Part shown: piece after piece, positions 13,837 to 27,211 of the stretch
Layout of the letters: each line of letters begins with the position of its first letter
Position numbering within the stretch: position 1 is the stretch's first letter
NCBI GenBank assembly: GCA_050259395.1
Contig: JBLNAO010000102.1
Span: 1-35,500 of the forward strand
Source of the DNA: Chloroflexota bacterium
Lineage (GTDB): Bacteria; Bacteroidota; Bacteroidia; Bacteroidales; VadinHA17
Length of the DNA stretch: 35,500 nucleotides
Direction of reading: 5' to 3'
Notes under the pieces: model-generated
Database searches by the model: none
Told to the model about the DNA's origin: nothing
Seen by the model: only the letters and a program-made list of their open reading frames with translations
Translations under genes and position numbers: made by a program

Positions 13837-14718
13837 ATGAGAAAGTTAATTATTGTAAGTTTAATGCTTACGACGACAGTCCTTCTTTCCGGACAGCAAC
13901 AGGGAAATCAGAACAGGCAAAACCAGCAGGGAAATCAACCCGCAGCTGCTCAATCAGCGACCCCTCAGGCTCCGGCAGCACAGCCGCAGCAGAGACCACA
14001 GGGAAACAACGCCAGACCGCAGGATCCCAACCGCATGGTTCCTGGAATGACTGAGATCTTTGAACCCGAAGTTCCTATTGTACAGCCCGGTGCAAAGGAC
14101 AGTGATCCTCCTTCAGATGCAATCGTTCTGTTTAACGGAACCAATGTCGACAAAGAATGGACAGATGCAAGAGGCAATCCCTCGAAATGGATCATCCAGG
14201 ATGGAAACCTGGTATGCGTTAAAGGTTCAGGTGTGATCAAGACAAAAAGAAAATTCGGAAGCGTTCAGCTTCACATCGAATGGAAAAGTCCTTCAGAAGT
14301 TATCGGCAGCGGACAGGGGAGAGGCAACAGCGGCGTTTACCTGCAGGAACTGTATGAAGTACAGGTACTTGACAGCTATGATAACAAGACCTATCGTCAG
14401 GGCCAGGCAGGCAGTCTCTACAAGCAGCATGCACCGCTTGTGAACGTTAGCCGCAAACCTGGAGAATGGCAGTCATATGATATTATCTACACTGCTCCCA
14501 CATTCAATCCCAAAGACACTACAACATATCTCACTGCACCGCGCGTTACAGTATTGCATAATGGTGTGCTTATCCAGAACAATGTAAGCCTCAGAGGTCC
14601 GACACAATATATAGGTATACCTGAATACACAATCAAAGTGCATGGCCCACAGAGCCTTGTTCTGCAGGATCACGGCAACCCTGTTGCTTTTAGAAACATC
14701 TGGATAAGAGAACTTTAA
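13837..14718 (+). CDS. DUF1080 (3-keto-disaccharide hydrolase family, concanavalin-like fold) secreted protein with a Q/N/P-rich N-terminal linker
   Basis: A 293-aa ORF with a signal peptide. The W..DG.L......G.i.T...F.d..L..EWk pattern is present (KWIIQDGNLVCVKGSGVIKTKRKFGSVQLHIEWK), along with NSGVYLQ..YEVQVLDS and the family-typical C-terminus LQDHGNPVAFRNIWIREL. Confidence 0.8.
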   Translation: MRKLIIVSLMLTTTVLLSGQQQGNQNRQNQQGNQPAAAQSATPQAPAAQPQQRPQGNNARPQDPNRMVPGMTEIFEPEVPIVQPGAKDSDPPSDAIVLFNGTNVDKEWTDARGNPSKWIIQDGNLVCVKGSGVIKTKRKFGSVQLHIEWKSPSEVIGSGQGRGNSGVYLQELYEVQVLDSYDNKTYRQGQAGSLYKQHAPLVNVSRKPGEWQSYDIIYTAPTFNPKDTTTYLTAPRVTVLHNGVLIQNNVSLRGPTQYIGIPEYTIKVHGPQSLVLQDHGNPVAFRNIWIREL

Positions 14719-14792
14719 ACCTATATGGTTATTTTCATAAATATTTTGCTTAATTTTATACACTCATACTAAATTTTAAACTACCTGGTAAA

Positions 14793-16286
14793 ATGAAAGA
14801 AGATTCAAAGAACATTAGCCGCCGGACCTTCATCGGTACAACCGGGGCTGCTGCAGCAGGTTTTACAATACTCCCGAGCTCCGTTATAGGAGGCCTTGGA
14901 AAAAGAGCTCCAAGCGACAAGCTGAATATAGCTGTTGTCGGTATAGGGGGAATGGGTAACTCAAACCTGAAGAATGTTGCTCCCACAGAAAACATAGTTG
15001 CACTTTGCGATGTTGACTGGGGATATTCAAAAGAAGTATTCGAAGCTAATCCGAATGCAAAAAGGTACTGGGACTGGCGCAAGATGTACGACGAAATGGC
15101 TAAATCAATTGATGGTGTCATCGTTGCTACTGCCGACCATTCTCATGCCGTTGTTGCTGCGAATGCAATCACCCTTGGAAAGCACGTTTATTGCCAGAAG
15201 CCTCTCACGCACACTGTTTACGAGTCAAGGCTGCTAACAAAACTGGCTGCAAAATATAAAGTTGCAACCCAGATGGGTAACCAGGGTTCATCAGCTGAAG
15301 GCGTTGACCTCATTGTTGAATGGCTGAACAATGGTGAAATCGGTGATGTAACAAAAGTTGAAGCTTTTACAGACCGTCCTATATGGCCGCAGGGTCTTAA
15401 CCGCCCCAAAGGCGAGTGGGTTCCCGATACACTTAACTGGGACCTCTTCATCGGACCGGCACAGATGCGTCCTTACAACAGCATTTATACGCCATGGAAC
15501 TGGCGCGGATGGTGGGATTTTGGTACAGGTGCTCTTGGTGATATGGCTTGCCATATTCTTCACCCTGTATTTAAAGGACTGAAACTTCAGTACCCGATCA
15601 AAGCTCAGGGAAGCTCCACACTGCTTCTTACTGACTGCGCTCCCAATGCACAGATGGTTAAACTGACTTATCCTGCCAGAACAACTGCGAAAAATGCAAA
15701 AATGAAGCTTCCGCAGGTTGAAGTTGTATGGTACGACGGTGGTCTCCAGCCCGCTAAACCTGAAGGTTGGCCGGCAGGGAAGAACATGAACGACCAGGGT
15801 GGTGGCGTTATCTTCCACGGAACAAAAGACAAAATCATTTGTGGTTGTTATGGAGTTAACCCATGGCTGCTCTCAGGCCGCAAGCCTCAGGCACCGCAGA
15901 CACAGAGACGCGTTGCGAATGCAACAAGAGGCGGACACGAAATGGACTGGGTACGCGCAGCTAAAGAATCTCCTGACAGCAGGGTGCTCACAAAATCCGA
16001 TTTCTCAGAATCAGGACCATTCAACGAAATGGTTGTTATGGGCGTTCTCGCAGTCAGACTCCAGGGCCTTAACAAGGAACTCGAGTGGAATGGTGAGCAG
16101 ATGACGTTTACAAACATCGGCGCTGATGAAAAACTAAGGCTTACAGTTTCGGATAACTTCACCATCATCGATGGCGACCCGAAATTCGACAGACCCAACA
16201 TTACAGTCGATGCCAAGTCGTTTGCCAACGAAATGATTAAGCATACATATCGTCCGGGCTTCACGCTCCCCGAAATGCCTGCATAG
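14793..16286 (+). CDS. Tat-exported Gfo/Idh/MocA-family oxidoreductase
   Basis: A 497-aa ORF with a twin-arginine signal (SRRTFIGTTGAAAAGFTIL) and a Rossmann motif (LNIAVVGIGGMGNSN). The family-typical DVD.../...ATADHSHA.../EKPL-like YCQKPLTH segment is also present. Confidence 0.85.
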   Translation: MKEDSKNISRRTFIGTTGAAAAGFTILPSSVIGGLGKRAPSDKLNIAVVGIGGMGNSNLKNVAPTENIVALCDVDWGYSKEVFEANPNAKRYWDWRKMYDEMAKSIDGVIVATADHSHAVVAANAITLGKHVYCQKPLTHTVYESRLLTKLAAKYKVATQMGNQGSSAEGVDLIVEWLNNGEIGDVTKVEAFTDRPIWPQGLNRPKGEWVPDTLNWDLFIGPAQMRPYNSIYTPWNWRGWWDFGTGALGDMACHILHPVFKGLKLQYPIKAQGSSTLLLTDCAPNAQMVKLTYPARTTAKNAKMKLPQVEVVWYDGGLQPAKPEGWPAGKNMNDQGGGVIFHGTKDKIICGCYGVNPWLLSGRKPQAPQTQRRVANATRGGHEMDWVRAAKESPDSRVLTKSDFSESGPFNEMVVMGVLAVRLQGLNKELEWNGEQMTFTNIGADEKLRLTVSDNFTIIDGDPKFDRPNITVDAKSFANEMIKHTYRPGFTLPEMPA

Positions 16287-16327
16287 ATCAACAGTCAGCA
16301 TAACTGCTGATATTGTATAATTTTATG

Positions 16328-16368
16328 AAAGTCACAGGTAAACATTTTTACCTGTGACTTTGTTTTTT
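16328..16368 (+). terminator. rho-independent terminator after the Gfo/Idh/MocA gene
   Basis: A 15-bp perfect stem, AAAGTCACAGGTAAA (16328-16342) / TTTACCTGTGACTTT (16347-16361), encloses a 4-nt loop. A T6 run follows at 16363-16368. Confidence 0.75.
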
Positions 16369-16393
16369 ATACAATAATAAAATACAAGTAGTT

Positions 16394-17167
16394 ATGAAGG
16401 CATTGAATATTATATTTTTCGGTACAGTCCTGCTGGGATTGGGTGCATCATGCGGTTCTCAGGGAGGACAGAAAAATGATGAGAATGTAAAAAAGGATAC
16501 TGTGACAACTGCGGTTCTTTCGAAAAATCCCGGCGATGAAGGTTTTGTCGACATTTTCGATGGTAAAACTGCATCAGGATGGAGAGGCTACAACAAAGAC
16601 TCTTTTCCGAAGGGTTGGGAAGTGGTGGATGGAACACTTCATTGTATTGGCTCAGGAACAGGTGAAGCAGGTTCCGGCGGAGACATAATCTATGGTAAGA
16701 AGCTTGGCAACTTCGAGCTGAGGCTCGAGTGGAAGATCTCTGAAGGAGGTAACAGCGGAATCTTCATCCTCGGACAGGAAATACCCGGGCATCCTCTTTG
16801 GCATTCTGCGATGGAAATGCAGGTCCTCGACAATGAAAGACACCCCGATGCCAAACTGGGTAAAAACGGTAACAGGATGGCAGGCTCACTCTATGATATC
16901 CTGCCTGCAAATCCGCAAAACGCCAAACCTGCAGGCGAATGGAACGAAGTGAAGATTCTTGTTTACCAGGGTACAGTGGTTTTCACCCAGAATGGTGAGA
17001 ATGTGGTCGAATTCCATCTTTGGACAGACGAATGGAAAAATCTGGTTCAAAATTCCAAGTTCAAGGATTATGAATGGTTCATGAATCCTGCAAAAGAAGG
17101 ATATATCGGCCTCCAGGACCATGGCAACGATGTGTGGTTCAGAAATATAAAGGTAAAGGAATTATAA
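16394..17167 (+). CDS. DUF1080 (3-keto-disaccharide hydrolase family) lipoprotein
   Basis: A 257-aa ORF with a signal peptide and lipobox (LGLGASC). Family motifs present are GW..y......GW.V.DG.L (SGWRGYNKDSFPKGWEVVDGTLHC), FELRLEWKISEGGNSGIF, MEMQVLDN and the C-terminal LQDHGNDVWFRNIKVKEL. Confidence 0.85.
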   Translation: MKALNIIFFGTVLLGLGASCGSQGGQKNDENVKKDTVTTAVLSKNPGDEGFVDIFDGKTASGWRGYNKDSFPKGWEVVDGTLHCIGSGTGEAGSGGDIIYGKKLGNFELRLEWKISEGGNSGIFILGQEIPGHPLWHSAMEMQVLDNERHPDAKLGKNGNRMAGSLYDILPANPQNAKPAGEWNEVKILVYQGTVVFTQNGENVVEFHLWTDEWKNLVQNSKFKDYEWFMNPAKEGYIGLQDHGNDVWFRNIKVKEL

Positions 17168-17802: not shown

Positions 17803-20800
17803 TTATTTCAACTTGATGAAAGGCACTGTTTTGTTGATCATTTTACCCTTGATGTTAAGGTAATATGTCGCCGGGGCAAGTCCCGCTCCCGACAGCGTTA
17901 TTGTGTTCCCTCCGCTGGTAATATCTCTGTCGGTGCTAAACATTGCGGCCCCTGCTGAATTATTGATCGTAAGCCTTATCCTGTCGGCATTCAAACTGTT
18001 AATGAATACGGTAAAATCATTCACGACAGGATTGGGATATATTATCAGAGCCTCTGATATTTCAGTGTTTTGGATCTCCAGGTTGAGCGTGTCATTTCCA
18101 GTGTAATCGTCACTGTTATTATAGCCGAAAACAGCAAGATTGTAGATACCGTATTTGGACAGGTCAGCTTTGGTTTTGAAAGCAATTTCAAGAGAATCGT
18201 TCCCGGGAGGCAGAACCTCGTCAAAATGTTGCCGGGTTGCGGGTTTATTGTCTATGTTGTATGCAAGGTTGAATCCATTGATGGTATCTTTACCTGTATT
18301 AAGCAGCATGACCCTAAGCATCGCCTGACCAACGTGGTTTTTATTGATCGGAGTCACTATCCTGGCAACCTGGAGGTCTTTTCCGATATAGTTGACCGAT
18401 CCTGCATTTGCAAAATCAATCAAGTCGATCCATGCGCAGTCGTTACCTCCGGTTACAGAATTGTCTTTTTTATACTTCCATTCCATCTTATTCAGCCCTT
18501 TCGAAACCGGAACAGCAATTTTTGTCCATGCAATATCTCCCGATTTCTTTAGCAACTCCCTGTCATTGAGAACAAAGCTCATATAATCGTAAGTGGGTTC
18601 GCATGATACCTTATACCAGAATTTAAGCGTATCATCAGCCGGGTACCATGTTCTGATGATCAGAGATGATGTCCCGTTATGTGTTATAAGTCCAGATCTT
18701 GCAGAAGTGGCACCTTCATAGAAACTGCCCTGGGTGATAGTCCATGGAACAGGAGAGGTGTTAATCCATGGGAAGATGTTGAATGACATTGCTTCGAAGC
18801 CTTCCCTGATTTTTCCTATCCTGATTGTGAAGTCTCTGTTGATTACGAATGGATATGAATTGAGATGAGATGAAACCTGTATGTAGTTACCTGATGACAG
18901 CACATCTGAAAGGCTCACTTTCAGGGAAATATCTGTTGTCTGCAGGGATTTAAGGAACCTGTTGCTAACTGCGGATTCAATAATATTGATACCGCTGCTT
19001 GAGCTGCCGATACTAAACTGCCCTGATGCATCGCTGCTTCCTTCGTTAACTATTCTGAAAACAAGATTGAATGTTTCTCCGGGGTCTGCAATATGGTCTC
19101 CGTTGCCTGTGCCTGTATCATCGATAAGGACGCTTGTAATGAGTAATTTTGGCGAGTGTACTGTAATGTCGACAGGGTAATGTTTCTCCGAATCATCACT
19201 CTTAACAAGAAGGTCCAGAGAAGCAATTCCCATGTCGGGAACATTTTCTGCTATGTCAACGAGGAACTTGTCGGCAAGGACAACATTTGTGCGGCTCTGA
19301 ATTGTGCCAATGAACGCTGAATCCTGTTCTATGTTTATCCATCCCGATCCGGAGCTCAGTTTCGCGTATACATTATGTGCATCGGAAAGCCCCATGTTGC
19401 CAAGATTCAAAGAGAGATAAAGCTTCTCGCTGAAGTCTGCTTTCCTGTTGTTATTGCCGGTTTGATCGTTAATAACAGCTTCGTTCAGATTCAGGAATTC
19501 CTTATGGATGTTTGAAAAATATATTGTTTTGATTATCGGATACCTGTTCTGACCGGTAATAACTACCAGGCATGAATCATTTGACAGACCAGGCATGTCC
19601 AGAGTTACGCCTCCGGAAACACCACCGAACGAAGCATCCCACAAGGTGTCGAAATGTGAAACGGCAACGTATGCAAAAGGCTCAACAGGCAGAGTGAATG
19701 ATTTTAATCCGTTAGGGAGAGTATCCGGAAGATTTACAGAGAACGGATATGGTTCGCCGATAACAGGGATCATACTGGGATCTCCTACAACATTATATGT
19801 TTCCCAGTAATATTTTTTCCAGCGCGATGTGCTTGAGCTTACCGAAAGATTTCCTGCATAATTGATCTGCCCCAGGGTGTAGTACCAGTCTGCAGGGTAT
19901 TCTTTATGTGTATGGAAGAACCTGTCGAAAACTCCATAACCTTTACCTGAATAATTAGGATTTTCTGTAATGCTTCCCAGTCCGACAGTCCAGTAATAAT
20001 CTTCAGTCCAGTAAGAATCATTTGAACAACCGATGAAGGCTGAAGCACCCTTGTTCTTCGCTAGAACAAGCCTGTTGCCGAAGGATGATTCTGAATTGAA
20101 AGTTGCTGTTCTGCACGCATTGCTTATGACAACAGGATACATGTTACTGTTTTTCAGCAAGGCTGTGTCGGCAGTTTTGATGTCGATATGAAGCCATCCG
20201 CCGGCATCTCCGTGGCCTGAATAGTTGATTAAGCCTGTTCCCTTGTTGATGATCTTTATTATTGAATCTTTCTGCTTTTTGAGGTAAAGATCAGGATCGG
20301 CGCCGGAATAGTAATAAAAGTGGTTCTCGTTTATATTGTTTGCGGCTGTGAGGTAATTTGAAACCAGGTACCTTACCTGGCCGTTCATAAATGTTGCATT
20401 GTCAGGATCATACCCGGCCGTTGCAAGAGCGTTCCTGTAAAACTCGTTTGTGCTTGTGAAGCTGAATTTTTCATATTGAATTATCTTATTCAAGGCAATC
20501 CTTGCTTCGGTGGTGTCTTTTGCAGGAAGCCTGCCGACATACATCTCAGGAATGTAATCACCGTTTCCCGTGAACTCGCCATAATACATGTCGGTATAGT
20601 TTGAAGTGGTTCCTGTGCCGAAACAGGGAATAACTTTGATATCTCCTACTATAAGAAGGTAATCAGGGGCAGGTTCATCCGCAGTAACGGAATTATATAT
20701 TTTGGAAACTGCATCTTTCAGCTGCGAAACACTGGTTCCTGCATATGAAGCTCCTTTATATAAGACCTTTACCCTGAAACCTTTTTGAGTCTTCCATTTG

Positions 20801-21588
20801 ATGAAAGGGCGAAGCTGTTTCCTGAAAGCTGTGTCAGTGAGGATTACCAATCCGGCGGGCTTGTCTGTGTAATCGGGAACAACATCCCTGTTGTAGTTCA
20901 TCACACCCTGAAGGATCGATTCACTAAAGAGCGATGATTGGCTCTGCGCTGATCTGAGGCTGACCGGCTGGCCGAATAGCACCTCTATCTTCATTGACGT
21001 GATGACTTCGAGGGTATTTGATTTCGGATTGTACTGCACGGGAGAAATCATGAGGTTTCCAAGGTTTGAATTCCTTGCTTTTCCCAGGAAATCAATAGTT
21101 GCAGTATCACCTTTTATTAAACCCTTCAAAGAGTAAACATTCCTGTCCATCCGGAATTCCGGTTTGTCCCTTTGAATGGTTTTGGCCTGGCTTTCCTGGG
21201 CAGGGTACAGAATTCCACGTATTTTTCCCGAAGCAGGTCTTATTTTCTCTGATCTCACCTCGGAGATCCTGATTCTGTAGGAGCGGTTCTCAGGAAGGGC
21301 AATAAGCCGGCTGAACACGGGAAGCTCGGGCTTGCCGGTCTCCGAACTTGTTACATGCCCTGGAACTGAAAGCCTGTAGAATTCACCATTCTCATTTTTC
21401 AGGGATTTTAAAGCAAGTTCAGGAAGACGGTAGTTAATTGTCACTGAACCATCCTGCCCGGTTACGTATTCAGTCGCCTCATCATTGGGACTGAACCTGA
21501 TGTTCCTGGTGACCTGCCCGTATGCAGTTATGAAAAAAAACAAAAAGAAACACCAGAGAACAGTGCGCTTTCTTTTTCCTAACCCCAT
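17803..21588 (-). CDS. C25 (gingipain-family) cysteine peptidase with T9SS C-terminal sorting domain
   Basis: The ORF track begins at the TTG at 21591, but the ATG at 21588 is more likely. After the signal peptide come a propeptide-like N-domain (GEFYRLSVPGHVTSSETGKPELPVFSRLIALP) and a His/Cys dyad with caspase-like spacing. The dyad is YSGH460GDAGGW (codon 20212-20214) and VVISNAC493RT (codon 20113-20115). About 700 aa of beta-rich accessory domains follow, and the last ~80 aa look like a Por secretion tail (IIYPNPVVNDFTVF...YYLNIKGKMINKTVPFIKLK). Confidence 0.8.
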   Translation of the reverse strand: MGLGKRKRTVLWCFFLFFFITAYGQVTRNIRFSPNDEATEYVTGQDGSVTINYRLPELALKSLKNENGEFYRLSVPGHVTSSETGKPELPVFSRLIALPENRSYRIRISEVRSEKIRPASGKIRGILYPAQESQAKTIQRDKPEFRMDRNVYSLKGLIKGDTATIDFLGKARNSNLGNLMISPVQYNPKSNTLEVITSMKIEVLFGQPVSLRSAQSQSSLFSESILQGVMNYNRDVVPDYTDKPAGLVILTDTAFRKQLRPFIKWKTQKGFRVKVLYKGASYAGTSVSQLKDAVSKIYNSVTADEPAPDYLLIVGDIKVIPCFGTGTTSNYTDMYYGEFTGNGDYIPEMYVGRLPAKDTTEARIALNKIIQYEKFSFTSTNEFYRNALATAGYDPDNATFMNGQVRYLVSNYLTAANNINENHFYYYSGADPDLYLKKQKDSIIKIINKGTGLINYSGHGDAGGWLHIDIKTADTALLKNSNMYPVVISNACRTATFNSESSFGNRLVLAKNKGASAFIGCSNDSYWTEDYYWTVGLGSITENPNYSGKGYGVFDRFFHTHKEYPADWYYTLGQINYAGNLSVSSSTSRWKKYYWETYNVVGDPSMIPVIGEPYPFSVNLPDTLPNGLKSFTLPVEPFAYVAVSHFDTLWDASFGGVSGGVTLDMPGLSNDSCLVVITGQNRYPIIKTIYFSNIHKEFLNLNEAVINDQTGNNNRKADFSEKLYLSLNLGNMGLSDAHNVYAKLSSGSGWINIEQDSAFIGTIQSRTNVVLADKFLVDIAENVPDMGIASLDLLVKSDDSEKHYPVDITVHSPKLLITSVLIDDTGTGNGDHIADPGETFNLVFRIVNEGSSDASGQFSIGSSSSGINIIESAVSNRFLKSLQTTDISLKVSLSDVLSSGNYIQVSSHLNSYPFVINRDFTIRIGKIREGFEAMSFNIFPWINTSPVPWTITQGSFYEGATSARSGLITHNGTSSLIIRTWYPADDTLKFWYKVSCEPTYDYMSFVLNDRELLKKSGDIAWTKIAVPVSKGLNKMEWKYKKDNSVTGGNDCAWIDLIDFANAGSVNYIGKDLQVARIVTPINKNHVGQAMLRVMLLNTGKDTINGFNLAYNIDNKPATRQHFDEVLPPGNDSLEIAFKTKADLSKYGIYNLAVFGYNNSDDYTGNDTLNLEIQNTEISEALIIYPNPVVNDFTVFINSLNADRIRLTINNSAGAAMFSTDRDITSGGNTITLSGAGLAPATYYLNIKGKMINKTVPFIKLK

Positions 21589-21697
21589 CAATGTTAAATA
21601 ATTAACACTAAATTCTAAATTACCTGCAGCAAGTTATGAAATTTACATGTAATATGTATTGCCTTTTAAAAATTTGGTAAGCAGTGTTGAAGCCCCA

Positions 21698-21746: not shown

Positions 21747-22499
21747 ATGAAAGGGAAAAGCTTGTATACATTGAAAAAAATAGGTTCAGCATTAATATTT
21801 GTACTAATATCTATCACCATGAAATCTCAGGGCATTCCAGAATATGATAAGATAGAAACAAAGGCCGGACCCGTTGAGATGCATTTCATAGGACACGGTT
21901 CCCTGATGTTCAAGGTGAACGGAACTGTGATTTACATTGACCCGGTGCGCAGTTCAGGAAATTACGACTTCCTGCCGAAAGCTGACATAATTCTTGTCAC
22001 TCACGAGCATGGGGATCACCTCGACGCTGAACTCATCGGAAAGCTGAAGAAGCAGGGCACTTTTGTTTTCTGCAACAAGAACTCGTCCAAAACTATTCCA
22101 TGGGCAATGGTGATGACACCCGGTTCAAGGCAGGAGATCAAAGGGATTGTAATAGATGCTGTCGATGCGTATAATATTGTTAATGAAAGAGCTCCCGGCC
22201 AGCCGTTTCATCCGAAAGGAGAGGGGGTTGGTTATATACTTACCATAGGTGGCAGAAGATTCTATATCGCGGGCGACACTGAAAACACACCCGAAATGAA
22301 AGCCCTTAAAAACATTGATGTGGCTTTTCTTCCCATGAACCTTCCCTACACCATGACTCCCGGGATGGTGGCTGATGCCGCTAAAGCATTCATGCCGAAA
22401 ATCCTTTATCCGTATCATTACGGAGAGACTGACACGGAGGAGCTTGTAAATCTGCTTAAAGACTCTAAAATTGAAGTGAGAATCAGAAACCTTAAATAA
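21747..22499 (+). CDS. secreted MBL-fold metallo-hydrolase
   Basis: The start chosen is the ATG at 21747, which is preceded by AAAGGAGGAGAAATT. The ORF-track start at 21684 is a GTG. The protein has a signal peptide (LKKIGSALIFVLISITMKSQG), the metal motif VTHEHGDHLD, and later GDTE and HY residues. Confidence 0.75.
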   Translation: MKGKSLYTLKKIGSALIFVLISITMKSQGIPEYDKIETKAGPVEMHFIGHGSLMFKVNGTVIYIDPVRSSGNYDFLPKADIILVTHEHGDHLDAELIGKLKKQGTFVFCNKNSSKTIPWAMVMTPGSRQEIKGIVIDAVDAYNIVNERAPGQPFHPKGEGVGYILTIGGRRFYIAGDTENTPEMKALKNIDVAFLPMNLPYTMTPGMVADAAKAFMPKILYPYHYGETDTEELVNLLKDSKIEVRIRNLK

Positions 22500-22507
22500 G
22501 ACCATCT

Positions 22508-23701
22508 ATGAGGAACATTGACAGAAGAAGCTTTATCAGGACAGGAGTTGCCGGAGCAGCCGGAATGGCCGCTTTTTCACCTGCTGTTGCATCAGCTTCA
22601 TCATCCCTGCAGGAACAGAAAATCATAACACGGAAGCTTGGGAATACAGGGATGGTAATCCCGGTTATCAGCTTCGGCGTTATGCGTGCCGACAATCCCA
22701 ATCTCTGCAAAGCTGCACATGAGAAAGGCATAAAGCTCTTCGATACTGCAAACGGTTATCAGAATGGCAATAATGAAACCATGCTTGGCAATTTGTTCAG
22801 GACATATCCCAGGGAGTCATTCTACCTGGCTACAAAGGTTAAACCTGCCGGTGTCGACAGGGATGGAAAGCCTTCTGCCGAAACAACTGCCGATGAATTT
22901 CTCGGAAAATTCGCGACAAGCCTTTCAAGGCTCAAAATGGATTATGTGGATATTCTTTATGTTCATGACATCAGGAATACTGATATGCTTGAATATAAGC
23001 CAATTATAAATGCTGTTAAGAAACTTAAAAAGGACAAAAAAGTCAAGTTCATCGGTTTTTCAACACATGCCAATGAACCGGCGGTAATCAGCGCCGCAGC
23101 AGATCTGAAAACATTCGACGTGATCCTTACTTCATACAACTTCAAGCAAGCCTATGCACAGGAACTTTCAGCTGCAATAAGCAAGGCTGCAAAATCGGGC
23201 ATCGGAATAGTTGGTATGAAACCTATGGCGGGAGGTGGCTTCCTGGATAAGGAAAAGACGAAAAAGATTAATCCCACAGCCGCGTTGAAATGGGCTTTGT
23301 CAAACCCTGATGTGACTACCCTCATTCCCGGCATGACTGAGTTTGATCATCTTGATACTGATGTGAAACTCTTAACAGATCTTACTATAACTGAATCTGA
23401 AAAGCTGGATCTCATCGCGGCTTCCGCAGAAACCGGACTTTACTGCACCCAATGTACCAATTGTCTGAAAGAGTGCCCGAAGAACCTTCCTGTTAATGAC
23501 CTTATGAGAGCTTACATGTATGCTTACGGTTACTCGAACCCAAAAATGGCTTATTCGTTGCTTAGCGAGCTGGGTACCGGTGCAAACCCGTGTGGTGACT
23601 GCGGAATATGCAACGTAAACTGTACCAAAAACTTCAGCATAAAAGAGAAAATCGCGGATATTTCAAGATTATCCGTTATCCCTGAAGATTTCTTAGTATA
23701 A
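22508..23701 (+). CDS. Tat-exported aldo/keto reductase with C-terminal 2x[4Fe-4S]-type cysteine motifs
   Basis: The twin-arginine signal is DRRSFIRTGVAGAAGMAAFSPAVASA. AKR tetrad candidates are D79/Y84 (FDTANGYQ), K110 (LATKV) and H153 (YVHD). The two ferredoxin-type motifs are CTQCTNCLKECP (C313-C323) and CGDCGICNVNC (C362-C372), encoded at 23444-23623. Confidence 0.8.
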   Translation: MRNIDRRSFIRTGVAGAAGMAAFSPAVASASSSLQEQKIITRKLGNTGMVIPVISFGVMRADNPNLCKAAHEKGIKLFDTANGYQNGNNETMLGNLFRTYPRESFYLATKVKPAGVDRDGKPSAETTADEFLGKFATSLSRLKMDYVDILYVHDIRNTDMLEYKPIINAVKKLKKDKKVKFIGFSTHANEPAVISAAADLKTFDVILTSYNFKQAYAQELSAAISKAAKSGIGIVGMKPMAGGGFLDKEKTKKINPTAALKWALSNPDVTTLIPGMTEFDHLDTDVKLLTDLTITESEKLDLIAASAETGLYCTQCTNCLKECPKNLPVNDLMRAYMYAYGYSNPKMAYSLLSELGTGANPCGDCGICNVNCTKNFSIKEKIADISRLSVIPEDFLV

Positions 23702-23759
23702 GAATATTGTAAATGAACCGCGAAGTATGAAAAATGCTTTGCGGTTTAAATATATTTCA

Positions 23760-24605
23760 ATGATGAAAGCTAAATTACTTACCCTTCTCGTATTCATTTT
23801 TTCTTCCAGCCTGTTTGCACAGGAGATAACTCTTCCTGAGTTGAGCGGCTTCAAAAAACAAACGAACTATCCTGTTTTTACCCCCGACAACCTGTGGGAT
23901 TTCATCAATGGTGCTGCAGACAATTACCTGGCTTACGGGTTCGTGGACCTTCATGTTGCAGAGTACAAGAAAGGCAAGGATGTAATCAAGCTTGAGGTTT
24001 ACCGGCATAAGGACAATACGCTTGCTTTCGGCATTTATTCTTCCGAGCGTTCTCCGTCATTCAGGTTTGTGAACCTGGGCTCACAAGGCTACAATGCCGA
24101 CGGATCCGTCAATTTTTTCAAAGGGAATTATTATGTAAAAATCCGCACTTATTCCAAAAAGGAGAAAACACTACAGTCTGCGCAATCTCTTGCCCAGCAG
24201 GTCGCAGACATGCTGCCTGGGGAAGCAGCTATGCCGGCAGCTATCACGCAGTTTCCCGGTGCAGGGAAGAAAACCAACGAGGAAACATACATCAACGAAA
24301 GCGTCCTTGGCCATAATTTCCTGAATAATGCCTTTAAGGCAAACTATGAAGTGGGACCGGATGTGTTTTCTATCTTCATTTTTGACAAGCCTTCCCCTAA
24401 AGAAGTGATGGAGACAGTCAACTCTTATTTACAGGCGGTTAAGATGGATCCATCCGATGATGATAATGGCAAGATGGTGCTTCAGGATGGTTATAATGAA
24501 ACCATATTCCTTTCATGGAAAGGCAAGAGGATAGTTCTGATGTCAGGCCTGGCAAAGGATCAGAGTGAAATTGCAGATAGATACACTTCCGAAATACTGA
24601 AGTGA
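23760..24605 (+). CDS. secreted hypothetical protein (no family recognised)
   Basis: The start chosen is the ATG at 23760, giving MMKAKLLTLLVFIFSSSLFAQ as the signal peptide. The ORF-track start at 23727 is also an ATG. The gene is in the same orientation as the AKR gene and follows it after a short gap. Confidence 0.55.
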   Translation: MMKAKLLTLLVFIFSSSLFAQEITLPELSGFKKQTNYPVFTPDNLWDFINGAADNYLAYGFVDLHVAEYKKGKDVIKLEVYRHKDNTLAFGIYSSERSPSFRFVNLGSQGYNADGSVNFFKGNYYVKIRTYSKKEKTLQSAQSLAQQVADMLPGEAAMPAAITQFPGAGKKTNEETYINESVLGHNFLNNAFKANYEVGPDVFSIFIFDKPSPKEVMETVNSYLQAVKMDPSDDDNGKMVLQDGYNETIFLSWKGKRIVLMSGLAKDQSEIADRYTSEILK

Positions 24606-24617
24606 TTTACTGATATT

Positions 24618-25616
24618 TCAGGAAAACCATTCCCGTTCACGGTTTTTAAGCTCAGTGAGCACTTTAAAGGCAGAATTTACATTATCGACAACCTGGAAGT
24701 CGAACATTCCGACACATATAAAATCTGCTCCGTTCTCGAAGGCAAATCTGAATCCATCGGCAGGCAGTATGGCGCCACCTGCAAGGACCTTGAATGCTAT
24801 CCATGGCTTTTTGATGGTTTTCATGTAATCCCGTGTTTTATCAGGGAAGAGATCAAACATGTTATCATGGATCTGGTTGTGGTCGTTTGATCTTTTGGCA
24901 TCGACGCTGAATTCTTCCCTCTGTTCAACAGGATGGGCAGACCAGTATTTGTCGTGATGAAAGGTCTTCACATAAAAATCAGCAGGTATGTTTTGTTCTT
25001 CACATGTTCTGATCACTGTTAATGCATGAGCGCCTACCCCTGCCATAAAACCTTTTTTCTTAATGTGCTCCACAGCTTTTCGCAGTTCCTGAATTTTGCC
25101 TTCTCTTACATAACGGTCAGCTTCACCACCCTGAATGTAGAGGGCATTGGCTCCGTTATCGACAGCCCTGTCTATATCACCCAGGAAATCGGCAGGTTTC
25201 AGATAAGTCTGGCAAATTGATTTCATCTTTCCTTTCATCTCCCTGAGGTACCTGTTGAAAACCGGATAGTTGGGGTTCGTCATGAACGCTGCAGTAACAC
25301 CGGCCATTTCGGCAATATGAAGAGTTTCGATAACTTTTTCGTCGGTATTGTAAGCCTTAAAAAGAGTATTTGCATAATTCAGATCTCTTGCGTGAGCATA
25401 CCCGCTTATCTGATTGCAGCCGATCAGCATGCGGCTCAGGGTAAGATCGCCAAGCTTTCCTTCAGGCAGTTTCCCTTCAACATTCTTCAGTATTTCTGAA
25501 TGTCGCAAACCAGGTTTTCCTGCAAGAATTGCAGGGACTGCTGCTGCAAGAGGCAATGCTGAAATGGTTTTTATGAAATCGCGTCTCTTTCGGAGGGATG
25601 AAAATAAGCTGTTCAT
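24618..25616 (-). CDS. Tat-signal protein of unknown function (possible beta/alpha-barrel)
   Basis: A 332-aa ORF with an ATG start and the twin-arginine motif LRKRRDFIKTISALPLAAAVPAILAG. It lies 38 nt downstream of the multiheme cytochrome gene on the same strand. It has no Cys clusters or other cofactor motifs that I can recognise. Confidence 0.6.
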   Translation of the reverse strand: MNSLFSSLRKRRDFIKTISALPLAAAVPAILAGKPGLRHSEILKNVEGKLPEGKLGDLTLSRMLIGCNQISGYAHARDLNYANTLFKAYNTDEKVIETLHIAEMAGVTAAFMTNPNYPVFNRYLREMKGKMKSICQTYLKPADFLGDIDRAVDNGANALYIQGGEADRYVREGKIQELRKAVEHIKKKGFMAGVGAHALTVIRTCEEQNIPADFYVKTFHHDKYWSAHPVEQREEFSVDAKRSNDHNQIHDNMFDLFPDKTRDYMKTIKKPWIAFKVLAGGAILPADGFRFAFENGADFICVGMFDFQVVDNVNSAFKVLTELKNREREWFS

Positions 25617-25654
25617 TATACCCGTTTTAAAAGTTAAAACAAGTTACAAGGAAA

Positions 25655-27154
25655 TCAATAAAGATATGTATGGCATTCTGCACAGTTTCCTTCATACCAT
25701 GCTGTGCCGATATCTACAGGGTGCCGGAATCCAAGACTTTTTTTGATGTCAGAGTATTCCATTTGTCCGGGGTTTCCCTGACCAACAATTGTGTGACACA
25801 GATCACAGTTCTTGGATATTGTTCTTCCATCATCAGATTTGAATGAATCGTTATGACATCTGAAGCAGCCATTGCTTTCCAGATGGCCGATATGTTCAGG
25901 GTACACGTCATAAGCAACCTTCATGAGAGGGAAGTTGTTACGGTTGAATGCTGTTTGAACCGCCGTAATCGAGTTGTTGATCACATCCGTATTCTTCTGA
26001 TATATTTCAGGATAATTCGTTTGATAAAAGCCGGTTATGCCTGCTTTGATTCTCATCATTGCGGTATCCTTATCAGTGAATGTTTCCCTGAGGACTTCCA
26101 TCGAAGCCTTTTTGATGAAGGGAATTTCTTTCCTTGCTTCCCCTGTAAGCATCACCTTGTCGAAATAGACACTTGGCGATTCATAATTATGCGAAGGCCG
26201 GTTATGGCAGTCTATGCAATCCATCGTTCTCATCTCCGATGCGGCCATCACACTGTCTGAAACCGGGATGTTGTCATCCTTGTAGATCACCGTTTTACCT
26301 GTAGATGCATCGGTGTACCTGACGTAATTGATTACCTCTCTTTTGTCGTTTTCAGACTGGTATTCTATTTTCACAGATGGATTGATATGCCAGTGAATTC
26401 CTTCAACATGCCCCAGACCGCTGTATTCGGGCCCTGTCTTCATTTGCAGTACAACATCCCATTCGGTGTTGAGCGAATCGGCAAGGAAATACTTGTGTGT
26501 CCAGAGTGAACGGGCATAAAATTTCTCCGGCCAGTGGCATTTTTCGCATGTCTCCCTCGCAGGACGCAGATCATGTAAAGGCGTTGCTATAGGCCTGCTG
26601 TAATCATTTGTAAGCACAGCATATATCTGGTGCAATCCCGACAATTTGGATTTTACATACCAGGAAGCTCCGGCCCCTACATGGCATTCGACACAAAGCA
26701 CATTGGCATGGGGTGAATTCTGGTAAGCCGTGTGCTCAGGTTCCATCACCTTGTGGCAGAGAAGCCCGCAGAATTCGACCGATTCTGTAATATGGTAAGC
26801 CTTGAAGCTGCCCATTGTGGACAATACAAGCACTAATACTGTCACAATTGTGAAAATAAGGAAGGCATTCCTGTGATCGGGAAGGTTAAGGTCAATCCAT
26901 GGCAACTTCTTCTCACCGGTGAGGCCTTTTTTTCTCCTGTTTCTTCTCTCTCTTATCATGCCTATGGGTATAAGCAGGAGTCCGAGCATCATGAATCCCG
27001 GAAGAACTATATATATGAAAAGGCCCAGGTTGGACTGATCATTGGCCATTATTTTTGAGAACCAGAAGAGCACAATGATCAGGATAAGGTTAATTGCAGC
27101 TGTGATGGCTCCGATTATTGTAAGCCAGTTCTTGGAAGATTGAGGCAGGTGCAT
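25655..27154 (-). CDS. membrane-anchored NapC/NirT-like multiheme c-type cytochrome (7 heme motifs, ImcH-like architecture)
   Basis: The ATG at 27154 is preferred, because the ORF-track start at 27196 is a TTG. There are three predicted TM segments: WLTIIGAITAAINLILIIVLFWF, LGLFIYIVLPGFMMLGLLLIPIG and AFLIFTIVTVLVLVLSTMG. The NapC-like module is ESVEFCGLLCHKVMEPEHTAYQNSPHANVLCVECH. Using ORF-track numbering, CXXCH motifs are at C168, C217, C327, C444, C464 and C505, and a CX3CH motif is at C143. Confidence 0.85.
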   Translation of the reverse strand: MHLPQSSKNWLTIIGAITAAINLILIIVLFWFSKIMANDQSNLGLFIYIVLPGFMMLGLLLIPIGMIRERRNRRKKGLTGEKKLPWIDLNLPDHRNAFLIFTIVTVLVLVLSTMGSFKAYHITESVEFCGLLCHKVMEPEHTAYQNSPHANVLCVECHVGAGASWYVKSKLSGLHQIYAVLTNDYSRPIATPLHDLRPARETCEKCHWPEKFYARSLWTHKYFLADSLNTEWDVVLQMKTGPEYSGLGHVEGIHWHINPSVKIEYQSENDKREVINYVRYTDASTGKTVIYKDDNIPVSDSVMAASEMRTMDCIDCHNRPSHNYESPSVYFDKVMLTGEARKEIPFIKKASMEVLRETFTDKDTAMMRIKAGITGFYQTNYPEIYQKNTDVINNSITAVQTAFNRNNFPLMKVAYDVYPEHIGHLESNGCFRCHNDSFKSDDGRTISKNCDLCHTIVGQGNPGQMEYSDIKKSLGFRHPVDIGTAWYEGNCAECHTYLY

Positions 27155-27211
27155 ATTGCTGAAGTTTAGGATTATATAAATATACTGAAAAATCAATAAA
27201 TAACCTGAATG

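Follow-up and report, generated by a model that had tools for sequence, protein, structure and literature searches.

Much anaerobic respiration, and much detoxification outside the cytosol, is driven by periplasmic enzymes that are wired to the quinone pool, and membrane-anchored periplasmic oxidoreductases linked to quinone are a known kind of system. In the tetrahaem systems of NrfH, NapC and CymA, a membrane quinol dehydrogenase serves a periplasmic enzyme. DoxD/DoxX proteins are four-helix small membrane subunits of quinone-linked dehydrogenases, namely the thiosulfate:quinone oxidoreductase (TQO) DoxDA and the hydroxyhydroquinone (HHQ) dehydrogenase BtdLS (PMC10084136). ApbE flavinylates proteins at the minimal motif D-x-x-[S/T]-G-A-[S/T] (PMC12052999), and a survey of flavinylation recognised five membrane classes (NapH-, MsrQ-, PepSY-, DsbD- and NQR/RNF-like), in which DoxX is not listed, and documented an interchange of flavinylated and cytochrome modules among related extracytosolic systems (PMC8238504). 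ImcH homologues are proteins of 495-519 amino acids (aa) with three N-terminal helices, an atypical CX3CH motif beside the membrane domain, six CX2CH motifs and similarity to NapC/NirT around helix 3 and the first haems; they are regarded as quinol oxidases, and their genes have been reported near other c-type cytochrome genes, not enzymes (PMC6295460). Here we compare with these systems a five-gene island on contig JBLNAO010000102.1 (assembly GCA_050259395.1), within a 35.5-kb stretch of DNA that we call the window. Genes A, B and C lie on the plus strand and converge with D and E on the minus strand; E encodes a membrane-anchored seven-haem cytochrome and D, directly downstream, a putatively exported barrel protein of an unannotated family. 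The relatives of D, which combine a DoxX anchor, a site for covalent flavin mononucleotide (FMN) and an adjacent ApbE gene, yield a testable hypothesis, and as judged from their sequences this wiring is strong independent support for D as a quinone-pool-linked periplasmic redox module. That E couples the quinone pool directly to D, with haem in place of flavin, is the explanation we favour, tentatively and at a little short of even confidence.

The coordinates of the five genes agree with the open reading frames (ORFs) of the window, and their motifs and signals bear out the original prediction, which had described five consecutive genes for exported or membrane proteins. Homologues of each of A to E number hundreds to thousands, and these are therefore real genes rather than chance ORFs. 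The features of the minus-strand pair, in the order of transcription, are:

25655-27154, minus strand: gene E, inner-membrane cytochrome of 499 aa with seven haem motifs, fitting the ImcH type
26810..27154, minus strand: E residues 1-115, three transmembrane helices (hydropathy peaks), presumed quinol-interacting anchor
25667..26770, minus strand: E residues 129-496, periplasmic multihaem domain with seven haem-binding motifs
25617..25654, minus strand: intergenic spacer between E and D, 38 nucleotides (nt), same strand, without a terminator-like site
24618-25616, minus strand: gene D, TIM (triosephosphate isomerase)-barrel protein predicted to be exported by twin-arginine translocation (Tat), of an unannotated family, in a stand-alone form without DoxX or flavinylation motif
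25518..25616, minus strand: D residues 1-33, twin-arginine (RR) signal peptide RKRRDFIKTISALPLAAAVPAILAG, homologous to the internal segment of DoxX fusions that comprises the RR motif and the fifth transmembrane helix

The protein D has no match among the Pfam and NCBIfam models, and no literature on its family was found. Its N-terminus joins the twin-arginine motif KRRDFIK to a hydrophobic stretch, as in Tat substrates, and export is predicted on that ground; with the signal DRRSFIR of B, this agrees with the original prediction of two Tat proteins in the island. The AlphaFold2 (AF2) model of D is a TIM barrel of eight beta/alpha units with a predicted local distance difference test (pLDDT) score of 78.5. 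Sequence and profile comparisons with the PDB returned only an insignificant IMPDH/GMPR-like beta7-beta8 phosphate-binding-type motif (E = 0.013-0.2), and the resemblance to aldo-keto reductases (AKRs) is one of fold only (template modelling score, TM, 0.54-0.57), with no sequence-profile similarity. Although B and D are both Tat TIM barrels, D as a paralogue of B was rejected at the sequence level (hhalign probability 1.3%). The family alignment shows H75, R77, D78, H197, K217, H220, D222, H246, H250, D251 and K276 to be invariant, while the conserved cysteines C67, C135 and C301 are replaced in Acidobacteriota members and were rejected as Fe-S ligands. Homologues of D number thousands: a profile search gathered 1,338 clusters at 50% identity with E of 1e-3 or below, 226 of them at 1e-30 or below, and in species-representative genomes the family occupies at least 591 places; more than 590 GTDB species have it. 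At least six phyla are represented (Bacteroidota, Acidobacteriota, Planctomycetota, Calditrichota with the Calditrichia, Hydrogenedentota and Omnitrophota). The stand-alone form, as in D, makes up the majority of the scorable representative clusters and nearly all of these begin with RRxF[LIV]; apart from the Tat signal, the only domains found joined to the barrel among the representatives were DoxX and one TPR.

It is the DoxX fusions that point to a redox role. Most of the best 120 homologues of D are about 514 aa long and have a DoxX domain (PF07681) N-terminal to the D barrel; DoxX is present in about one-fifth of the scorable clusters of the family, and fusion or adjacency to DoxX recurs in Acidobacteriota, Calditrichia and Bacteroidaceae loci whose D is at 44-57% identity. 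Within the fusions an internal twin-arginine motif, RRELLKGLAGLPFLA, precedes a fifth hydrophobic helix, and DAVSGAT or close variants follow about 30 residues past that motif. Among the top matches of D, 67 of the 78 fused proteins have the strict flavinylation motif and 2 of the 42 without fusion do; the motif also occurs in 14 of the 19 fused representative clusters, and its position, about 35-45 residues ahead of the barrel, is conserved. The Acidobacteriota version reads HAITGAT, and in 22 loci of that phylum an ApbE gene (Pfam 3.9e-81) stands immediately downstream of DoxX-D. Two Hydrogenedentota loci encode a Tat signal, DGMSGAT and then D, without DoxX. Because the DoxX fusion, the flavinylation motif, apbE and the twin-arginine signal occur together in this family, and because DoxX has a precedent in quinone-linked enzymes, D would be a redox module of the periplasm, folded prior to export and repeatedly wired to the quinone pool. 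The earlier suggestion of an anchor of NapC/NirT type feeding an uncharacterised periplasmic enzyme is thereby strengthened for E and D, since the relatives of D show this DoxX/FMN/ApbE wiring.

The relatives of D resemble described ApbE-flavinylated systems (NqrC/RnfG, PplA, FrdA/UrdA) in that their membrane module bears the motif at its periplasmic side and apbE is adjacent. They differ from the five described membrane classes (Meheust et al. 2021) in that the membrane module is DoxX, and from known flavinylated systems in that FMN_bind, DUF2271 and DUF3570 domains are absent and the motif lies in the linker before a TIM barrel; in the D of the window the motif itself has been lost. Likewise, DoxDA and BtdLS share with DoxX-D the combination of a four-helix DoxX-type protein with a catalytic subunit and the link to quinone, but these are separate subunits for which neither flavinylation nor a Tat TIM barrel has been reported, and unlike them the window is without DoxX. 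Literature searches found no papers linking DoxX with flavinylation or ApbE. As far as was found, the D family, its DoxX-FMN wiring and the pairing with a cytochrome of ImcH type are undescribed.

Further features of the fused relatives were seen in individual loci. In Acidobacteriota (L043-L077, e.g. L065:502-3343) the order DoxX-(HAITGAT)-D followed by ApbE forms a conserved two-gene unit, and in L064 two tandem DoxX-D copies precede ApbE. Two Bacteroidaceae loci (L071:2845-9079 and L074) encode a distant DoxX-D with 44% identity and a DVLSGAT motif. Their neighbours, as read from the sequences and not from Pfam, are a Tat-signal xylose-isomerase-like TIM barrel, a uroporphyrinogen-decarboxylase-like gene, a sulfatase and a PhyH-like dioxygenase, a possible hint at glycan-derived substrates. 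DoxX-D ORFs with the internal twin-arginine motif before the fifth helix (P0029, P0033, P0089; L009-L034) are candidates for polytopic proteins that use both Sec and Tat. Polytopic proteins inserted by Sec and Tat are known from few families, e.g. the actinobacterial Rieske proteins.

Alignment of the window's D with its fused relatives (A3) shows that it begins just ahead of the former internal twin-arginine helix, which is now an N-terminal Tat signal, and that a short deletion has removed the flavinylation site. The DoxX domain is missing altogether: the ORF starts at the twin-arginine signal and the gap to E is only 38 nt. A rough neighbour-joining tree suggests at least four losses of DoxX inside the Bacteroidales clade to which the window's D belongs, and some relatives retain relics: P0062 still has the truncated tail of a DoxX domain and, as DAVSGAP, a decayed form of the motif. 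In the DoxX-less sub-clade of the window, each member examined (the window, L001/2, L008 and L093) bears E. In several relatives an M28 peptidase gene lies between E (or the HAD gene) and D (L006/L016:8487-9968, L092:4488-5969, L022:6470-7951), and where it is inserted, DoxX is often reduced to a truncated relic and the flavinylation motif has decayed, as in P0062.

Gene E encodes a protein that has every feature of the ImcH architecture, as the original prediction of an ImcH-like heptahaem cytochrome with three transmembrane helices had proposed, with one refinement: its first haem motif, CGLLCH at residue 129, is CX3CH and not CX2CH. Hydropathy places the helices at residues 11-29, 44-62 and 97-115, so that the CX3CH motif stands beside the third helix, and six CXXCH motifs follow at residues 154, 203, 313, 430, 450 and 491. 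The region of NapC/NirT similarity is recognised by the Pfam model Cytochrom_NNT (PF03264; residues 96-186, 3.1e-09, 37.2 bits, cut-off 24.1), and a match to NrfH in the PDB (2j7a) reaches E = 0.005. The best 120 homologues of E have at least 69% identity and are nearly all 496-501 aa long; an alternative TTG start at 27196 is unlikely from such comparisons because the homologues are 499 aa long. With NrfH, NapC and CymA, E shares the N-terminal NapC/NirT homology. These proteins have one helix and four haems, as against the three transmembrane helices and seven haem motifs of E, which remains far under the equivalog cut-offs for NrfH (TIGR03153; 7.3e-15, 55.2 bits, cut-off 134.2) and TorC (25.6 bits, cut-off 455), with no NrfA, NapAB or TorA as a partner. 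The absence of a known terminal reductase was likewise found as predicted, no Nrf, Nap, Tor, Dms or Psr catalytic subunit being identified by Pfam or NCBIfam among A to E or the annotated flanks.

From ImcH (GSU3259) of Geobacter sulfurreducens and its homologues, to which it corresponds in length class, helices, haem motifs and the NapC/NirT-like region around the third helix and first haems, E differs in its surroundings. ImcH proteins are reported to work in extracellular electron transfer, with further c-type cytochrome genes next to their own, whereas the only gene downstream of E is that for the Tat TIM-barrel protein D, and there is no other cytochrome within 35 kb; in the 35.5-kb window no ORF besides E has more than one CXXCH. 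The host of E is a member of the Bacteroidales, and a single Bacteroidetes homologue of ImcH was listed in 2018.

In the mechanism that we propose, D would act in the periplasm as the TIM-barrel catalytic subunit of oxidoreductases that form an uncharacterised family. It would fold, and probably load its cofactor, in the cytoplasm, which would account for the near-universal twin-arginine signal, and it would exchange electrons with the quinone pool of the membrane. In the fused relatives this wiring would be built in, as the four-helix DoxX is followed by the RR-containing fifth helix and then by the D-x-x-[S/T]-G-A-[S/T] site in the linker, to which, at the periplasmic face, ApbE would link FMN. 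The sub-lineage of the window has lost DoxX and the FMN site through deletion, the former internal twin-arginine helix becoming the N-terminal Tat signal, and the sole membrane redox module left at the locus is E, 38 nt upstream on the same strand. E may then couple menaquinol/menaquinone to D via its periplasmic haems, both the contact between the two proteins and the direction of electron flow being our supposition. Coupling of E and D fits a rewiring from flavin to haem because DoxX and the flavin site were deleted while E was kept 38 nt upstream, and a swap of this kind has already been described for other extracytosolic enzymes. The proteins A, B and C would probably be accessory periplasmic enzymes that act on the same substrate class as D in this Bacteroidales clade. 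Beyond the window, it is possible, although we hold it with more doubt than belief, that the D family represents an undescribed class of periplasmic oxidoreductases with modular quinone wiring, either through DoxX and ApbE-attached FMN or through a separate heptahaem cytochrome of ImcH type.

If true, DoxX-FMN would be a sixth flavinylation-associated class of transmembrane electron transfer, and the DoxX-D fusions would be new polytopic proteins of the dual Sec/Tat pathway. ImcH-like cytochromes, so far tied to extracellular metal reduction, would gain an enzyme-coupled role outside metal-reducing bacteria, with a possible enzyme partner in soil and sediment Bacteroidales, and the clade would offer a natural series of flavin versus haem rewiring.

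Gene neighbourhoods, taken from 80 genome-scan loci together with loci fetched by protein look-up, bear most directly on the pairing of E with D; those of E and C cover the closest 120 homologues, all of the same clade. Within this one Bacteroidales clade, in which D is at about 54-100% identity, the genes run thrA-thrC-HAD-(E)-(DoxX)D and converge on C-B-A, beyond which lie a SpoIIE-type regulator and/or a C25 peptidase. Wherever E is present (more than 20 loci), it stands upstream of D on the same strand, usually 13-100 nt away. This position of E favours its coupling to D. A number of observations weigh against it. The link between E and D itself rests on adjacency inside a single clade with frozen synteny, to which the adjacency of D with C-B-A is confined as well, and the flanking thrA-thrC-HAD genes and C25 peptidase are equally conserved neighbours of D there; since these housekeeping flanks are just as syntenic, inheritance alone could explain both linkages. 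Separately, E is missing from about 12 loci with DoxX-D and is found together with DoxX-D in about 11 relatives, and DoxX-less D occurs without nearby E in L022/L023 and L029. A strict rule by which E replaces DoxX was accordingly rejected, as about 11 loci hold both. The ratio of presence to absence of E is 10:3 in lineages with DoxX-less D against 8:12 otherwise, an enrichment that is suggestive and, by Fisher's test uncorrected for phylogeny, not significant (p = 0.07). An M28 peptidase gene separates E from D in several relatives, and in L091 a redoxin gene does so too. Other counterpoints concern the proteins themselves. No cofactor site was identified in D, a conserved insert at residues 224-255 is poorly modelled by AF2, and Foldseek returned only generic TIM barrels (AKR, designs derived from DERA, IGPS and ThiG) at TM 0.4-0.57. 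No NCBIfam ImcH model matches E, and its fit to the ImcH type is a judgement on architecture rather than on alignment to GSU3259.

These patterns make it a substantial, if rather doubtful, alternative that the genes are neighbours by descent. E would then be a free-standing quinol oxidase of ImcH type that feeds periplasmic or extracellular acceptors, D would find its partner elsewhere or in soluble carriers, A-B-C would be a separate operon, and the arrangement would be frozen synteny. The collinearity from thrA to the C25 peptidase in all relatives, the gain or loss of E independently of D, the insertion of unrelated genes between the two in several genomes and the report of ImcH genes with other cytochrome genes rather than enzymes (PMC6295460) are all as this explanation would have it. 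So is the picture outside the Bacteroidales clade, where none of A, B, C or E was found within 10 kb of D or DoxX-D and the other neighbours are heterogeneous. Less easily accommodated are the facts that E was never found away from D in the sampled loci, that the two are 38 nt apart on the same strand without a terminator, and that the window has no other cytochrome to take electrons from E. Gene C poses a similar difficulty. It is the most faithful neighbour of D, adjoining it in 28 of the 80 genome-scan loci as well as in loci from protein look-up, it is convergent with D throughout the clade with 8-12 nt between the stop codons in most loci, and it is kept even where B or A has been lost (L010, L025, L089). 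The idea of all five genes as one conserved system did not hold, as D travels without A, B, C and E elsewhere, and a five-gene island is weakly supported: both operons are indeed syntenic in one Bacteroidales clade, but the flanking thrA-thrC-HAD and C25 peptidase genes are equally so. The narrower proposal of a quinone-pool-linked periplasmic system is partly supported for E and D through the wiring of the relatives of D; E is neither necessary nor exclusive.

Alternatively, E and D could act in series through the quinone pool, D oxidising its substrate and reducing menaquinone through DoxX-FMN or another carrier, and E re-oxidising menaquinol in favour of a high-potential periplasmic or extracellular acceptor. 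The roughly 11 relatives in which E stands beside an intact DoxX-FMN-D would suit such a loop, as would the view of ImcH homologues as quinol oxidases (PMC6295460) and the reduction of quinone by DoxD-type subunits (PMC10084136). It gives no account, however, of the route by which D without DoxX, the form found in the window, would reach the quinone pool, and no acceptor cytochrome is encoded nearby; we consider it unlikely. Least probable, and very unlikely, is that D has no redox role and is a periplasmic aldolase- or hydrolase-like TIM barrel for which DoxX is a mere membrane anchor. Among the Foldseek matches are DERA and further barrels of the class I aldolase or phosphate-binding kind, the copies in Planctomycetota adjoin an aldolase gene, and a metal site for hydrolysis could be built from the numerous invariant His and Asp residues. 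The D motifs ADFYVKT and AFKVLAGG may also resemble the two lysine motifs of DERA. A flavinylation motif of conserved position and an adjacent apbE would nevertheless have no role in a non-redox enzyme, a hydrolase needs no DoxX-type anchor, and the Planctomycetota neighbourhood is specific to that clade. Direct coupling of E to D therefore stays the explanation that we prefer among these.

The plus-strand genes, which end 12 nt from the stop codon of D, would on this preferred explanation supply accessory functions. Their features are:

21747-22499, plus strand: gene A, Sec-secreted metallo-beta-lactamase-fold hydrolase (Lactamase_B_3 1.1e-20; HEHGDH at residue 86)
22508-23701, plus strand: gene B, predicted Tat-exported aldo-keto-reductase barrel with a C-terminal ferredoxin domain of 2x[4Fe-4S] type (Aldo_ket_red 1e-31; Fer4_9/17/8; RR signal)
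23444..23623, plus strand: B residues 313-372, two CxxCxxCxxxC cluster motifs
23727-24605, plus strand: gene C, secreted DUF6599 protein (Pfam 1.6e-46), likely true start at 23760

The N-terminus of A is hydrophobic and of Sec type, and its matches to Lactamase_B_3 and Lactamase_B_2 score 74.7 and 58.7 bits. B follows after 8 nt. It matches PF00248 with 110.5 bits (cut-off 24) and has the signature residues D79/Y84/K110/H153 within DTANGY at residue 79, LATK at 107 and LYVH at 150; the cluster motifs start at residues 313 and 362. Its twin-arginine motif agrees with those of Tat substrates, from which export is predicted, and the Pfam TAT_signal match is weak (17.5 against a cut-off of 22.7). 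We take B to resemble the aldo-keto reductases with a C-terminal Fe-S domain, of COG1453 type, of which we know of no characterised member. It shares with them an AKR barrel with the Asp/Tyr/Lys/His signature and two 4Fe-4S motifs and differs in its predicted export to a compartment without NAD(P)H; because the periplasm lacks NAD(P)H, electrons presumably enter B through the Fe-S clusters.

C has a Sec-type signal and a DUF6599 domain (PF20244, 158.6 bits, cut-off 27). Translation probably starts at 23760, 11 codons downstream of the annotated-length start, as its homologues are 280-281 aa long. These homologues number 1,537 and are all clade-like; the family is small and appears to be restricted to the Bacteroidales clade. 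Judged by its AF2 model (pLDDT 77), C would be a periplasmic protein of two alpha+beta domains, and Foldseek finds it weakly similar to TP0453, RseB and MucB (TM 0.21-0.27). No cofactor motif was seen in C, and no papers mentioning DUF6599 were found. C may be an accessory protein specific to the clade, as, with less confidence, may B and A; a lactone, keto-sugar or carbonyl compound as the substrate is no more than a lead.

Elsewhere in the family, an Omnitrophota locus (L083:9893-14036) contains four tandem D paralogues, three of them with a detected twin-arginine signal, and after them a Tat-signal GFO/IDH/MocA gene. In Planctomycetota loci (L076-L084, e.g. L082:5131-10963) a stand-alone D comes directly after the aldolase gene, which is of the DeoC/LacD family (Pfam 8.5e-71), and aroB-like and fused aroD/aroE-like genes lie nearby; the aroA'-like and aroDE neighbours were set aside as a clue to an aldolase, being clade-specific.

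In the window at large, Rfam gave no matches to riboswitches or other RNAs, and a scan for promoters and terminators returned counts close to those of shuffled sequence. A second exported redox module is present at 13837-17167, where a Tat-signal GFO/IDH/MocA oxidoreductase (14793-16286, SRRTFIG) stands between two 3-keto-disaccharide-hydrolase (DUF1080) genes, an arrangement syntenic in the relatives L003 and L089. The C25 peptidase adjoining the island (17803-21591, minus strand) bears the Por_Secre_tail of the type IX secretion system (T9SS). NCBI labels the contig 'Chloroflexota bacterium', while the close relatives of C, D and E all belong to Bacteroidales/Bacteroidia; the label is probably a binning error, and a similar case is that of the related proteins P0010 and P0255, which carry the label 'Methanosarcina sp.'

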